Of a stretch of 64,000 nucleotides of DNA, positions 5,257 through 7,578 are shown in pieces; within the stretch, counting starts at the first letter, position 1, and every line of letters begins with the position of its first letter. Made by a program: the position numbers and the translations under genes. Source of the DNA: a virus; the IMG/VR virus record IMGVR_UViG_3300031521_000001. One strand, 5' to 3'. Under the pieces are notes generated by a model that was not told the DNA's origin, did no database searches, and worked only from the letters and a program-made list of their open reading frames with translations.

Positions 5257-6018
5257 ATGAAATTAATTGGATTTGCAAATAAATTTTATACTCTGTGGAG
5301 TTATTCAGAAGAAGAGTTATATACTACAGTTAATAATCAACCATATAAATATGGAGTCAAACAGATATATTCTTATATTAAGAATATTTCTTTTGATTTA
5401 GATAAAGTAAAAGAACTTTATCCTAATGTGAAAATTGATGATGATTTGAAAGGTAAAAGTGCAAGTTGGTCAACTGAACCAAAAATTCAATATCCTGCTG
5501 AATGTTTTCATTTTGGTAAATATGAAGGAAGTTTCATAAGTGAGTGTACAGATAAATCTTATCTGATTTGGTACTTTGAAAATGGTGTTTATGATGAGCG
5601 TCGTACAATAACAACAAACAGATTAATTGAATTAGGATGTTATTTTTATAATGATATATTATTTCAATCTATTGAATTACTTAACCAGTATACTGATCAT
5701 ATCAAAAAGCAAGCTGAGATTTCAAAGATGATTATAGAAACATATGAAAAATATAAAATATCTGGTATTTTTTCATATAATTTTTATAATTCATTAAGTA
5801 GTGAAGGAAATTATAGAGATAATTCTTTTGAATTTAGATTTAATGAATTTTCTCAACAGTGTTATGCTGGATATGATTATGGCTTGCCTTTAATGAATGG
5901 AAAATCTAAAAGAATTAAAAATAAAGTTCTTGAAATGGAAGTAATTACTGAAGAAGATAAAACTTTTGGTAATAAATATCTAAGAGTTTTAAGCATCAAA
6001 TCTATAAAAAATATTTAA
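5257..6018 (+). CDS. hypothetical protein, first gene of a 3-gene unit with the PARG-like and HDIG genes
   Basis: 253-aa ORF; stop 2 nt before the next start. Confidence 0.8.
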   Translation: MKLIGFANKFYTLWSYSEEELYTTVNNQPYKYGVKQIYSYIKNISFDLDKVKELYPNVKIDDDLKGKSASWSTEPKIQYPAECFHFGKYEGSFISECTDKSYLIWYFENGVYDERRTITTNRLIELGCYFYNDILFQSIELLNQYTDHIKKQAEISKMIIETYEKYKISGIFSYNFYNSLSSEGNYRDNSFEFRFNEFSQQCYAGYDYGLPLMNGKSKRIKNKVLEMEVITEEDKTFGNKYLRVLSIKSIKNI

Positions 6019-6019
6019 T

Positions 6020-6823
6020 ATGATCAAAGAAGAATTAATACAGGTATTTGAAGATACTAAACTACACAGTGAAGGTATATTGAAATCTGAAACAACATAT
6101 CATTCATTTGATGACAGATTAATGTCAGATGTTAGTATTCCTTGTAGTCAAAACATACAGGTTATTAATTCTGATAGTGTATCTGCTATTACAGAATATA
6201 GCAAATTAGGGAAAACTTGTGTTCTTAATATGGCATCATTTAAACGTCCAGGTGGTGGAGTTGCAAAAGGCTCAAAAGCACAAGAAGAATGCTTATTTAG
6301 GTGCTCAAATTTGACTCATCTTATTAATACTGATAACTATCCATTAGGAGATGATAAAGCTTTATATACAAAGGATGCAGTATTTTTTAAGGATGTATAT
6401 TATAACTATATGGATGAGGTTAAATCTGATGTCATAACAATTGCAGCACTAAATCTTAAAAATATTGAGGTTAATAGTAATTTTGATACAATATCGAAAG
6501 ATAACATATCATCAATAAATTCTGATGGAGCAAAAATATCAAGGCATGATTATGAAGAATTAACAAAGGAAAAAATAAGATTAATGTTATCACTTGCAAT
6601 TAAAAATGATGTTGATATTATTGTATTAGGTTCATTCGGTTGTGGTGTTTTCCAAAATGTTCCTGAAACAATGGCTAAAATGTTTAAAAAATTATTAGTA
6701 AATGAAGGATATTCTAAATATTTTGAGAAAGTAATATTTGCAATCATCAATGATAAAAACTCAGTTGGTAATAATTATGAGATTTTCAAAAATGTTTTTA
6801 GTGATTATAATTTAATATATTAA
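6020..6823 (+). CDS. PARG-like macrodomain protein (bacterial-type poly/mono-ADP-ribose glycohydrolase, DUF2263 family)
   Basis: signature GGGVAKGSKAQEE (GGG-x6-8-QEE) in ...NMASFKRPGGGVAKGSKAQEECLFRCSNL. Confidence 0.75.
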   Translation: MIKEELIQVFEDTKLHSEGILKSETTYHSFDDRLMSDVSIPCSQNIQVINSDSVSAITEYSKLGKTCVLNMASFKRPGGGVAKGSKAQEECLFRCSNLTHLINTDNYPLGDDKALYTKDAVFFKDVYYNYMDEVKSDVITIAALNLKNIEVNSNFDTISKDNISSINSDGAKISRHDYEELTKEKIRLMLSLAIKNDVDIIVLGSFGCGVFQNVPETMAKMFKKLLVNEGYSKYFEKVIFAIINDKNSVGNNYEIFKNVFSDYNLIY

Positions 6824-6825
6824 AA

Positions 6826-7578
6826 ATGAAAAATAAGTTAAACATATTACAAACAAGAAAATTGAGTGATATTGTAAGCAATTTATATAAAGATGGTGAA
6901 TTAGAAAAAATTCTACCTGAATTATGTAAATTACATACTACTACTAATGGTCATAAAAATAATTTTTATCATACATTAGGAGTACTTAACAACGTGATTG
7001 AATATGATAATGATAACTTAAAAATGAAGATTGTCGCTTTATTACACGACATTGGAAAGATTTCTGTTAGAACAAAAAACAATGAAGGAAATTGGACATT
7101 TCATGATCATGAAAATGTAGGTGCAAAAATGATACATAAAATTTTAAAAAGATTCAATATAACTAATAAGAAAACTGTTGATTATATTTACAGAATGGTA
7201 AAGTATCATGGTAGGGTAAAGATGCACAGGGATGTAACAGAATCAGCTATAAGAAGGTTAGATGTAGAAGTTGGACATGATATAGTATTAGAGTTAATAG
7301 AGTTCTGTAAGTGTGACATAACAACTAAATATGATGATAAGCGTCAACGTATTGTTTCAGGATTAGATGAAATAAAGAATAGAATATTAGAGGTTCGTGA
7401 GAAAGACAAAGAATCTAAATGGCGTTCTCCAATCACAGGTATTATAATAATGAAAATGTTAGAAATTACTACTGGTAGAATGGTTGGAGACATAAAGAAA
7501 GTAACTGATGAAAAAATAAAATCAGGTGAATGGACTGAAGAAGATGCTATTAAATATATTAATACATTTAGAAAATAA
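6826..7578 (+). CDS. HDIG-type HD-domain phosphohydrolase
   Basis: motifs H..H (NFYHTLGV) and ALLHDIGK, as in the HD domains of CCA enzymes and 2',3'-cyclic phosphodiesterases. Confidence 0.7.
   Translation: MKNKLNILQTRKLSDIVSNLYKDGELEKILPELCKLHTTTNGHKNNFYHTLGVLNNVIEYDNDNLKMKIVALLHDIGKISVRTKNNEGNWTFHDHENVGAKMIHKILKRFNITNKKTVDYIYRMVKYHGRVKMHRDVTESAIRRLDVEVGHDIVLELIEFCKCDITTKYDDKRQRIVSGLDEIKNRILEVREKDKESKWRSPITGIIIMKMLEITTGRMVGDIKKVTDEKIKSGEWTEEDAIKYINTFRK

Follow-up and report, generated by a model that had tools for sequence, protein, structure and literature searches.

Three co-oriented genes at positions 5257 to 7578 of the window (the whole 64,000-nucleotide stretch of viral DNA analysed here, IMG/VR record IMGVR_UViG_3300031521_000001) encode, in this order, a putative nucleic-acid-binding protein (ORF1), a bacterial-type poly(ADP-ribose) glycohydrolase (PARG), and a stand-alone HD phosphohydrolase (Table 1). 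The explanation that we favour, with about even confidence, is that a huge phage uses the locus as a cassette for de-ADP-ribosylation and end healing of RNA, most likely tRNA. The family matches of the ORFs exceed chance by far, and the PARG-HD cassette is a variant of arrangements known in bacteria and in other phages; we infer the functional coupling of PARG and HD, their substrate, the order of their reactions, and any role of ORF1.

The three ORFs are tightly spaced, as originally predicted, although the gaps are 1 nt between ORF1 and PARG (stop codon at 6016-6018, ATG at 6020) and 2 nt between PARG and HD (stop codon at 6821-6823, ATG at 6826) rather than 2-3 nt. The trio recurs, identical or nearly so, on numerous independent metagenomic contigs, which reach 711 kb in length. 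Spacing of 1-4 nt between unrelated genes is found throughout the window. A gene for a nucleotide-sugar epimerase follows and is possibly co-transcribed with the trio as a fourth member; no terminator-like site was found between 7578 and 7736, and the sole clean + strand intrinsic terminator lies after the end of the epimerase gene (8605), where a hairpin likely ends the + strand transcription unit. Terminator-like sites numbered 3 in 4 kb against 0.5 expected, while a sigma-70 promoter scan (41 sites against 36.7 expected) was uninformative at 24% GC. The epimerase is retained downstream of the trio in relatives with 81% identity, there with two additional intervening ORFs. Action of the epimerase on released ADP-ribose was considered and found no evidence; its best NCBIfam match, ADP-heptose 6-epimerase, was far below the cutoff.

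Table 1. Features of the window discussed in the text, with positions, strand, and basis of assignment.
Feature	Position	Strand	Basis
ORF1, phage family member, 253 aa, putative nucleic-acid-binding accessory protein	5257..6018	+	FGKY motif; predicted C-terminal OB-fold
Bacterial-type PARG (DUF2263/TIGR02452), 267 aa	6020..6823	+	PF10021, TIGR02452, motifs, predicted fold
Stand-alone HD (HDIG) phosphohydrolase, 250 aa	6826..7578	+	PF01966, TIGR00277, TIGR02692, phrog_2244, 3WFO
SDR: NAD-dependent nucleotide-sugar epimerase/dehydratase, 289 aa	7736..8605	+	PF01370 E=6.9e-33; phrog_540 E=1e-42
Bidirectional intrinsic-terminator-like hairpin at convergent junction after epimerase	8596..8614	.	8-bp stem, T-runs on both strands
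cREC (cyclic-phosphate-processing receiver) domain protein	27713..28051	+	PF20274 cREC_REC E=6.5e-15
Class-II CCA-adding enzyme, head+neck only, 240 aa	28291..29013	-	PF01743 PolyA_pol E=2.4e-18
Polynucleotide kinase / HAD 3'-phosphatase, T4 Pnk-like order, 312 aa	30667..31605	-	PF13671 AAA_33 + PF08645 PNK3P
AdfN / T4 gp30.3-family NADAR-fold ADP-ribosylglycohydrolase homolog	62493..62981	+	PF08010 Phage_30_3 E=1e-28

The middle gene encodes a bona fide bacterial-type PARG with intact catalytic residues; its conserved residues, together with data on SCO0909 and DRB0099, suggest that it is active. The protein scored 71.1 bits against PF10021 (PARG_cat_microb; cutoff 23.5, E=1.7e-19) and 115.3 bits against TIGR02452 (cutoff 50, E=3.4e-33). 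Its catalytic loop, RPGGGVAKGSKAQEEC, reads GGG-x7-QEE (G78-G79-G80, seven residues, Q88-E89-E90); the PARG signature and its Glu-Glu had been predicted correctly, with a spacer of eight rather than seven residues, and x7 falls within the published GGG-X6-8-QEE range. The signature matches that of the Deinococcus radiodurans PARG (DrPARG) column for column and is invariant in two alignments of 15 and 23 homologs, so that the pair of glutamates proposed as a check on catalysis is retained. A second diphosphate-binding loop (G204-S-F-G207-C-G-V-F211-Q-N213) aligns to GAWGCGVFRN of DrPARG, and G204, G207-C-G-V-F211, and N213 are invariant among homologs. Searches with phmmer matched DrPARG (5ZDA-G, E=6e-13) and also the Thermomonospora curvata enzyme (TcPARG, 3SIG). 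The AF2 model (pLDDT 82, pTM 0.85) predicts a macrodomain fold with PARG-specific extensions; the best PDB match found by Foldseek was TcPARG (3SIH, TM 0.71, E=1.6e-13), then DrPARG (5ZDB/5ZDE), with canonical PARGs and MacroD-type domains weaker by about eight orders of magnitude. Family, catalytic loop, GxxGCGVF motif, and predicted fold are common to the window PARG, T. curvata PARG (3SIG), D. radiodurans DRB0099 (5ZDA), and Streptomyces coelicolor SCO0909. In contrast to the solved bacterial enzymes, to which it is only ~20-22% identical over the structural alignment, the window PARG is encoded by a huge phage and carries a clade-specific insertion of ~20-25 residues (aa ~146-175) that is modelled with low confidence. 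At the DNA level, phage genomes yielded a single weak match of 239 bp, so comparisons were made with proteins, and bacterial genomes were scanned for relatives with an alignment as query, a single-sequence query having found none.

A literature search for characterised phage PARGs or their biochemistry found nothing. The bacterial-type family removes ADP-ribose from poly(ADP-ribose), from RNA 2'-OH groups, and from RNA and DNA terminal phosphates, cleaving at C1'' and freeing the whole ADP-ribose, such that a terminal phosphate may stay on the nucleic acid (PMC11833690). In a published panel of hydrolases, PARGs alone acted on 2'-OH-linked RNA ADP-ribose (the product of RhsP2) and were also active on phosphate-end-linked ADP-ribose; bacterial-type PARGs moreover protect cells against an RNA-targeting ADP-ribosyltransferase (ART) toxin (PMC11833690). 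Given the activities in this panel, RNA is the better-supported target of the window PARG.

The protein downstream of PARG is an HDIG hydrolase, as first proposed (32.3 bits against TIGR00277, cutoff 27.6; PF01966, E=2.6e-11), but rather than being a generic phosphohydrolase it corresponds to the C-terminal HD+tail portion of class-II CCA-adding/repair enzymes, here detached and with its catalytic residues intact. It covers positions 226-462 of 466 in TIGR02692 (CCA tRNA nucleotidyltransferase, E=9.6e-36) and 183-381 of 392 in phrog_2244 (tRNA nucleotidyltransferase), and it matches the body/tail of the Aquifex aeolicus A-adding enzyme (3WFO, residues 317-503, profile E=8e-24); neither a PolyA_pol head nor a kinase domain was matched in a Pfam search. 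The metal ligands (H49, H74-D75, H95, H128, and D164) are invariant in 30 homologs, and stand-alone homologs of ~250 aa, with at least 120 clusters, constitute a sizeable family that is conserved among huge phages. The complementary N-terminal half is encoded by a head-only gene 21 kb away on the opposite strand, the product of which covers positions 30-220 of TIGR02692 (E=4.9e-29) and 66-192 of NF008137 ('multifunctional CCA addition/repair protein') and shows the motifs GGAVRD..DIDF, RRDFTLNAM, and EDSLRILRCVRF. Neither ORF reaches the TIGR02692 equivalog cutoff of 438.8 bits (123.4 bits for HD and 101.3 bits for the head); each is half an enzyme: against E. coli Cca (NF008137), actinobacterial TIGR02692, and 3WFO, the HD ORF aligns to the C-terminal half and the head ORF to the N-terminal half of what is otherwise an intact enzyme. 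Phages often carry a head-only CCA enzyme and no HD partner for it (446 versus 15 records). The CCA-enzyme type of the HD protein points to healing of tRNA or RNA 3' ends. Yakunin and colleagues are said to have found in 2004 that the HD domain of the E. coli CCA-adding enzyme is a 2',3'-cyclic phosphodiesterase, 2'-nucleotidase, and phosphatase.

ORF1 belongs to an uncharacterised family of phage proteins and has a DUF3820/ExoX-C-like FGKY motif at aa 84-109; its predicted fold is a succession of beta-hairpin, helical, and OB domains, the OB-fold being C-terminal. The closest precedent for the arrangement of the trio is the D. radiodurans operon DRB0100-DRB0099-DRB0098, which encodes a ligase-like protein, a PARG, and an HD-phosphatase with polynucleotide kinase, and for which a function in nucleic-acid end repair has been proposed (PMC1997131; PMC11833690). 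Common to both are three genes, a central PARG, and a co-oriented HD phosphoesterase directly after it. They differ in that the window HD is of CCA-enzyme type and not kinase-fused, the polynucleotide kinase (PNK) being a separate gene 23 kb off; that the gene upstream of PARG encodes an OB-fold protein instead of a ligase; and that the cassette has no RlaP, in contrast to Deinococcus-type operons. A role of ORF1 as the ligase counterpart of DRB0100 was rejected, given that it matched no ligase family and its predicted fold differs; PF09414 had no match anywhere in the window.

A census of gene neighbourhoods in 112 PARG lineages found that PARG recurrently adjoins RNA-repair genes (KptA, RNA ligase, RlaP, Thg1, and HD-kinase). 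KptA/Tpt1 is near PARG in 14 lineages, within ~100 nt in 8 of them, and RlaP in 5; RNA ligases abut PARG in two lineages (L108 and L135), and a cluster judged by eye to be RtcB-like is also among the neighbours. The gene order is RlaP-Rnl-PARG-HD/kinase-Rnl in Deinococcus yunweiensis (L024), an operon of the DRB0100-0098 type in which PARG and HD/kinase overlap by 4 nt, and PARG-Rnl-kinase/HD in a phage lineage (L135); proteins of both, and of L020, carry AAA_33+HD, that is, HD+kinase fusions. PARG is paired with HD(kinase) both in Deinococcus/Dysgonomonas and, independently of the window, in another phage lineage; other phage cassettes are RlaP-PARG and HNH-ligase-PARG. Membership of the window HD in the Deinococcus HD-kinase subfamily was rejected, since BLASTP with the D. 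yunweiensis protein recovered only the HDxGK pentapeptide (E=2.8). Because the PARG-adjacent HD of Deinococcus belongs to a different subfamily, PARG and HD came together on at least two occasions.

Direct succession of PARG and HD is evolutionarily shallow. It occurs in three phage lineages only, and it is missing both around phage PARGs of 37-58% identity (L097-L112, L171, L172, LR756502, and phage G) and around stand-alone HD genes of 42-61% identity (L167-L169); the two genes clearly can function without being neighbours. The tight coupling predicted for the three ORFs holds; that they act as an operon on one substrate is, with so narrow a distribution of the pair, inferred.

The window encodes further RNA-repair functions. 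The cREC gene adjoins the CCA head gene divergently; for the cREC family, a role in phage RNA repair has been predicted in which it resolves cyclic phosphates of the 2',3' or the 1''-2'' kind (PMC7824862). The PNK ORF matches TIGR01663 (PNK-3'Pase, E=6.9e-24) and also TIGR01664 (DNA-3'-Pase), and a SAK-HAD fused to PPK2 is present. Jumbo-phage RNA-repair toolkits are known to include CCA enzymes, cREC, PNK-HAD, and, as rare alternatives, HD phosphatases (PMC7824862). Compared with the cassettes surveyed by Iyer et al. 2021/2022 (PNK-HAD, SAK-HAD, cREC, RlaP, RNA ligases, CCA enzyme, and KptA/Macro), the window has cREC, PNK-HAD, SAK-HAD, and the CCA head; those surveys, in which the term PARG does not occur, did not single out PARG-clade macro domains or describe coupling of PARG with a CCA-type HD. 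A Pfam scan of pseudo-polyproteins assembled from every ORF of 75 aa or longer (E<=1e-3), which shorter or very divergent genes could escape, found no ART, KptA, or RNA ligase in the 64-kb window. PADLOC gave no match for ORF1, PARG, the epimerase, or the gp30.3-like ORF and no DarG, and for the HD protein only generic Cas3/Cas10-HD similarity.

A second, independent ADP-ribose-removing enzyme is probably encoded at the far end of the window, where the predicted NADAR protein was confirmed by its match to PF08010 (100.3 bits, cutoff 36), the family of T4 gp30.3; its profile matches bacterial NADARs weakly (HHalign probability 52%). T4 gp30.3 is AdfN, experimentally a NADAR-fold DNA ADP-ribosylglycohydrolase that removes DarT1-derived ADP-ribose from DNA (PMC11825919). 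The window accordingly holds two distinct ADP-ribose-removing folds, as anticipated. AdfN, which acts against DarTG1, offers a parallel as a phage-encoded orphan glycohydrolase directed at host nucleic-acid ADP-ribosylation, and the general idea of a phage reversing such modification was sound. The two enzymes differ in that AdfN has a NADAR fold and cleaves an N-glycosidic base linkage in DNA, whereas the window PARG has a macro/PARG fold and is proposed to cleave an O-glycosidic or phosphate linkage in RNA.

If the locus is an RNA-repair cassette, structured RNA or RNA ends would become ADP-ribosylated during infection, either by toxins or defences of the host that act as ARTs or through side reactions of Tpt1/KptA-type enzymes. 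PARG would strip the whole ADP-ribose, so that the 2'-OH is free again or a terminal phosphate stays behind, and the HD enzyme would then clear 2',3'-cyclic, 2'-, or 3'-phosphates. The head-only CCA enzyme, with PNK and ligase functions encoded elsewhere, could restore a usable tRNA, and ORF1 may bind the nucleic-acid substrate. Several observations given here count against this explanation: the shallow distribution of the PARG-HD adjacency, the lack of any RNA ligase, KptA, or ART match in the scan of the window, the frequency of head-only CCA enzymes in phages that have no HD, and the preference for soluble ADP-ribose derivatives that the Aravind laboratory ascribes to phage macro domains (PMC9503650).

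A less probable but serious alternative is that the adjacency is coincidental or syntenic, with the HD protein working with the distant CCA head in routine tRNA 3'-end maintenance and PARG acting on non-RNA targets, for example reversing the ADP-ribosylation of phage or host proteins by host ARTs or tuning a phage ART. The unlinked state of PARG and HD in most related huge phages agrees with this, as do the restriction of ORF1-PARG linkage to the window's own clade, the extra gene that separates ORF1 from PARG in L089/L096, and the close spacing usual for unrelated genes in the window. Small phage records in which head and HD genes lie within ~50 bp on the same strand (MT837203, MT838678, MT835510, and MT835611) likewise indicate that the CCA head is the natural partner of the HD. 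However, the order PARG-HD persists in one lineage (L170) despite strongly diverged flanks and PARG (PARG 59% and HD 83% identical, ORF1 replaced, RlaP nearby), and the independent PARG+HD(kinase) pairs described above also argue against coincidence. Protein targets or a phage ART fit poorly with the lack of a detected ART gene in the window and with bacterial PARG neighbourhoods, which contain NAD and ADP-ribose genes (NrtR/NADAR/ARH/Nudix) and RNA-repair genes, not protein-modification systems.

It is unlikely that PARG instead degrades a soluble ADP-ribose derivative (for instance a Thoeris-type glycocyclic ADPR, O-acetyl-ADP-ribose, or by-products of KptA/sirtuin RNA repair) in an anti-signalling or detoxifying role, with the HD protein possibly dephosphorylating the products. 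A survey by the Aravind laboratory argues that soluble derivatives are the more frequent targets of phage macro domains (PMC9503650), the 1''-2'/1''-3' ribose-ribose bond of Thoeris-type gcADPR resembles the linkage in poly(ADP-ribose), and the NAD-ADP-ribose neighbourhoods of bacterial PARGs, the NAD-related NMNAT of the window (47938-48555), and the location of ORF1 homologs near NadE+NMNAT on a single, unrelated contig of a phage (L174) are all compatible with such a role. Against it, a literature search on Thoeris and gcADPR showed no link to PARG, known anti-Thoeris factors are sponges, bacterial PARG substrates demonstrated so far are polymeric or nucleic-acid-linked, and the CCA-type HD and OB-fold neighbours indicate nucleic acids.

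The original prediction, that PARG and HD reverse DarT-type DNA ADP-ribosylation with the HD clearing a leftover ribose-phosphate, is now very improbable: DarT modification is a real anti-phage defence that phages do counter with orphan enzymes able to reverse it (PMC11825919), phosphate-linked ADP-ribose at DNA ends is a substrate of bacterial PARGs (PMC11833690), and ORF1 could use its OB-fold to bind ssDNA, yet base-linked ADP-ribose (guanine N2, thymine N3) is a substrate of NADARs or DarG/TARG1-type macro domains, with NADARs alone reversing the guanine linkage in the published panel (PMC11833690), the window already has the dedicated anti-DarT1 family but neither a DarG match nor an ART domain, the HD is of tRNA CCA-enzyme type, and PARG, in freeing intact ADP-ribose, would leave at most a terminal phosphate and no ribose-phosphate remnant (PMC11833690).

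Within the favoured RNA-repair explanation, a bolder and quite doubtful version is that PARG, the CCA-type HD, and ORF1 form one machine that repairs tRNA acceptor ends ADP-ribosylated at the 2'-OH of the terminal nucleotides or at a terminal phosphate by an undescribed host anti-phage defence, the HD+tail protein docking the tRNA, acting as phosphatase, and handing the end to the head-only CCA enzyme. Were this so, immunity that ADP-ribosylates tRNA ends would be a new class of defence, and the phage would possess a CCA repair enzyme that is trans-split and associated with PARG.

Only recently has it been recognised that toxins and defence systems of bacteria (RhsP2, CmdT, and Tre23) ADP-ribosylate RNA, and reversal of 2'-OH RNA ADP-ribosylation by bacterial PARGs was shown in 2025. 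The locus described here, with the PARG-ligase-kinase/HD, RlaP-PARG, and HNH-ligase-PARG cassettes, suggests that PARG belongs to the RNA-repair armoury of huge phages. The detached HD half of the CCA enzyme is a convenient natural system for the function of that domain itself. If confirmed, de-ADP-ribosylation would join kinase/phosphatase, ligase, and CCA-addition activities among the steps of phage tRNA repair, and the enzymes would provide simple reagents to detect RNA ADP-ribosylation in infection.

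With a GC content of 20-27%, the window is extremely AT-rich. It derives from a huge phage: metagenomic contigs as long as 711 kb encode an identical PARG protein, and homologs occur in uncultured phages of 500-735 kb, in Lak megaphages, and in Bacillus phage G. The window's nearest relatives were found solely in JGI/ENA/Logan metagenome assemblies. The three ORFs of the original prediction were recovered at their predicted positions, all on the plus strand, and their tight coupling held, with gaps of 1 nt (ORF1/PARG) and 2 nt (PARG/HD) that are slightly tighter than the 2-3 nt first reported. 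Because the sole clean terminator-like hairpin on this strand follows the downstream epimerase gene, the transcription unit may, judging from sequence, comprise four genes, including the epimerase.

Features of the window discussed in the text
Feature	Coordinates	Strand	Size, match or remark
Tandem paralogs, dozens	348-2002, 11054-14298, 19994-27239, 36836-39342, elsewhere		~100-190 aa
Second small paralog set	3956-4910	-
ORF1	5257-6018	+	253 aa
PARG	6020-6823	+	267 aa; PF10021 and TIGR02452
HD/HDIG protein	6826-7578	+	250 aa
SDR nucleotide-sugar epimerase	7736-8605	+	next gene after HD
GOLLD RNA, full length	14729-15164	-	Rfam RF02032, 243 bits vs gathering score 150, model positions 1-416 of 416
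DUF7768/DUF4406 protein	18550-18894	-	nucleoside 2-deoxyribosyltransferase-like
PPK2 with C-terminal 'Swiss Army Knife' RNA-repair HAD domain	21094-22737	+	TIGR03707, 272 bits; PF18143
cREC domain protein	27713-28051	+
Head-only CCA-adding enzyme	28291-29013	-	240 aa
Polynucleotide kinase/HAD 3'-phosphatase (PNK)	30667-31605	-
MgtC-family membrane protein	35113-35742	-	PF02308, E=1e-33
RlmN/Cfr-like radical-SAM RNA methyltransferase	39719-40612
TnpB/Cas12f-like protein	40631-42091	+	OrfB_IS605 and Cas12f1-like TNB domain
Nicotinate/nicotinamide mononucleotide adenylyltransferase	47938-48555	-	TIGR00482, 142 bits vs cutoff 112
Long tRNA match	54490-54578	-	89 nt, Rfam RF00005
Long tRNA match	54710-54809	-	100 nt, Rfam RF00005
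T4 gp30.3 (AdfN) homolog	62493-62981	+	PF08010, E=1e-28

The PARG scores above the curated thresholds of both PF10021 (microbial PARG catalytic domain) and TIGR02452. Its GGG...QEE signature, originally given a spacing of eight residues, aligns with the catalytic loop of Deinococcus radiodurans PARG as GGG-x7-QEE, and its second loop, GSFGCGVFQN, aligns with GAWGCGVFRN of the same enzyme. Across two alignments, one with 15 homologs and one with 23, neither motif varies and the catalytic QEE is never lost; the active site is intact. Structure prediction, proposed earlier as a check, gave an AlphaFold model (pLDDT 82, pTM 0.85) whose best matches are crystal structures of PARG from T. curvata and D. 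radiodurans (TM up to 0.71), with canonical PARGs and MacroD-type domains far weaker. Model quality is poor only in an insertion, ~20-25 residues long (about aa 146-175), that is particular to the window's clade.

The third ORF is, as predicted, an HD/HDIG protein, and its matches identify it as a detached half of a CCA enzyme. Within NCBIfam it fits best to the CCA tRNA nucleotidyltransferase model TIGR02692, of which it covers positions 226-462 (of 466) at E=1e-35, with a score well short of the equivalog cutoff. A second match, to PHROG 2244 'tRNA nucleotidyltransferase', spans positions 183-381 of 392, and among solved structures the protein matches only the body and tail of the Aquifex aeolicus A-adding enzyme (residues ~317-503; E=8e-24 for the family profile). 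The head-only CCA enzyme covers positions 30-220 of TIGR02692 and has the motifs of the Pol-beta head and neck. Since the two proteins match complementary parts of this model, the window encodes both halves of a class-II CCA-adding/repair enzyme separately, as genes on opposite strands 21 kb apart. Four small phage records have the head and HD matches on one strand at a distance of ~50 bp or less, either adjacent or fused. Stand-alone HD halves of ~250 aa form at least 120 protein clusters, down to 40% identity, on contigs of 500-723 kb, and the HD-superfamily metal ligands (H49, H74-D75, H95, H128, D164) are invariant among them. The halves can work apart, because the head-only enzyme occurs in 446 phage records and the HD type of the window in only 15. 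The HD domain of the Escherichia coli CCA-adding enzyme is reported (Yakunin et al. 2004, J Biol Chem) to be a 2',3'-cyclic phosphodiesterase, 2'-nucleotidase, and phosphatase, which the NCBI family name 'multifunctional CCA addition/repair protein' reflects.

ORF1 belongs to a family of phage proteins of 240-255 aa that share the strongly conserved motifs IGFANKFYTLW, YIKNIS, FGKY-G (a DUF3820/ExoX-C-like element), and Y-LP--NGKAKRIKNK. Its AlphaFold model is confident (pLDDT 93), the structures that resemble it over the full length are those of uncharacterised phage proteins, and in unrelated contigs members of the family are encoded near NadE and NMNAT or near RNA ligase. ORF1 is probably a nucleic-acid-binding protein.

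Among the hydrolases tested, the bacterial-type PARGs SCO0909 and DRB0099 were the only ones that reversed the 2'-OH RNA ADP-ribosylation made by the toxin RhsP2; they also cleared ADP-ribose from phosphorylated RNA and DNA ends and protected E. coli against RhsP2 (PMC11833690). In D. radiodurans, DRB0100 (ligase-like), DRB0099 (PARG), and DRB0098 (HD phosphatase plus polynucleotide kinase) form a putative repair unit (PMC11833690; PMC1997131). Surveys of jumbo phages list cREC, PNK-HAD, SAK-HAD, RlaP, CCA enzymes, KptA, and Macro domains as RNA-repair components, with occasional HD phosphatases, and never name PARG (PMC7824862; PMC9503650); our literature search turned up no publication dealing with a PARG from a phage.

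The association of PARG with RNA repair is recurrent. PARG loci were dereplicated to 112 lineages, 72 of them bacterial. Bacterial neighbours include NADAR (18 of the 72 lineages), NrtR-type Nudix regulators (16), ADP-ribosylglycohydrolases (11), Macro-like proteins assigned by eye without a Pfam hit (8), DUF4291 (5), Thg1, and an RtcB-like cluster (by eye, no Pfam check). Deoxyribosyltransferase-like proteins (Nuc_deoxyri_tr2), related to the window's DUF7768/DUF4406 product, recur in 6 bacterial lineages. KptA/Tpt1 RNA 2'-phosphotransferase neighbours PARG in 10 lineages by clustering and 14 by phmmer, 8 of these within ~100 nt. A Deinococcus yunweiensis operon (positions 3186-7941 of its locus) reads RlaP, RNA ligase, PARG, HD plus kinase, RNA ligase, with a 4-nt overlap between PARG and HD-kinase; compared with the published DRB0100-0098 operon, RlaP and a second ligase are added. 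In Dysgonomonas, PARG lies beside HD plus kinase, RNA ligase, and KptA. Four viral contigs of one separate phage lineage (L130, L132, L135, L136; about 4800-8000) carry a complete end-healing and sealing cassette with PARG, followed by RNA ligase (PF09414 with OB domain) and kinase plus HD; in another phage lineage an HNH-RNA ligase overlaps PARG, and in two RlaP abuts it.

The best-supported reading, to which we give about an even chance, takes the locus for a cassette of RNA/tRNA de-ADP-ribosylation and end healing. The PARG would take whole ADP-ribose off RNA 2'-OH groups or terminal phosphates, the CCA-type HD enzyme would free blocked 3' ends of their cyclic, 2' or 3' phosphates, and repair would be completed by the head-only CCA enzyme and PNK encoded elsewhere in the window, with the nucleic acid possibly held by ORF1. 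These activities would be those of family members in the literature; we infer the substrate, the order of steps, the physical or functional coupling, and the role of ORF1.

Conservation of the arrangement was surveyed in 80 bacterial and 78 viral PARG loci, in which ORFs were called and searched with the window proteins. Only in the window's clade, where PARG identity is 81% or higher, does the ORF1-PARG-HD trio occur, and in one sub-lineage an additional gene sits between ORF1 and PARG. A further locus has the PARG-HD pair without ORF1 (PARG only 59% and HD 83% identical to the window's), with an unrelated 94-aa ORF in its place and an RlaP RNA-repair nucleotidyltransferase nearby. The window-type HD was not found beside other phage PARGs (37-58% identity), including those of the 642-kb phage LR756502 and phage G, nor was PARG found beside stand-alone HD genes at 42-61% identity. 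In LR756502, the PARG homolog (42% identical; locus features at 1467-3329 and 5004-5744) lies 1.7 kb downstream of a likely NAD-dependent DNA ligase (by eye, no Pfam check), without an HD or ORF1 neighbour, and the HD homolog is 115 kb away. The PARG-HD linkage is real but evolutionarily shallow. Adjacency might instead be mere synteny, the HD half serving the split CCA enzyme and the PARG acting elsewhere, which we consider unlikely. The Deinococcus HD-kinase has nothing in common with the window HD beyond the HD motif, and the pairing of PARG with an HD phosphoesterase therefore arose at least twice independently.

The remainder of the window, the AdfN homolog included, fits a theme of RNA repair and NAD conflict. 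The cREC protein, head-only CCA enzyme, and PNK form an RNA-repair island (27713-31605), and the PPK2-HAD fusion is unusual in joining polyphosphate-driven nucleotide phosphorylation to RNA end processing. With the adenylyltransferase the phage encodes a step of NAD+ synthesis, in keeping with an NAD-centred conflict. ART, KptA, and RNA ligase were not detected within the 64-kb window. Among other features of the window, a TnpB/Cas12f-like gene directly follows that of the radical-SAM RNA methyltransferase, and the GOLLD RNA sits where long ORFs are absent. The two tRNA matches are unusually long and might represent tRNAs with introns or of atypical form; ARAGORN reported only the 89-nt one, as tRNA-Phe with the odd anticodon AAA. 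The tandem paralogs start MKYIKKFE... and terminate ...NKFNL/I, several with ankyrin repeats, and the second small set has the C-terminus ...YFYTEKEIRKIKLKKL. The MgtC-family protein is also phage-encoded.

That the PARG degrades soluble ADP-ribose-derived signals or by-products, a case argued in general for phage macro domains, seems to us improbable; the literature search returned no paper on PARG acting on Thoeris gcADPR. The NADAR-fold protein of the original prediction was borne out as a member of the gp30.3/AdfN family, its direct match to bacterial NADAR profiles being weak (HHalign probability 52%); AdfN removes DarT1 ADP-ribose from phage DNA and counters DarTG1 (PMC11825919). The proposal that PARG and HD jointly process DarT-type DNA adducts is very improbable, because removing base-linked ADP-ribose is the task of NADAR and DarG-type enzymes, the phage already carries an AdfN homolog, and PARG leaves no ribose-phosphate remnant on which the HD enzyme could act.

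The locus is best classed with the PARG plus HD-phosphoesterase pairings of nucleic-acid repair, as a phage version that uses the detached HD half of a CCA-adding enzyme. To a specialist this would be plausible rather than startling, and it bears on the young field of RNA ADP-ribosylation in phage-host conflict.
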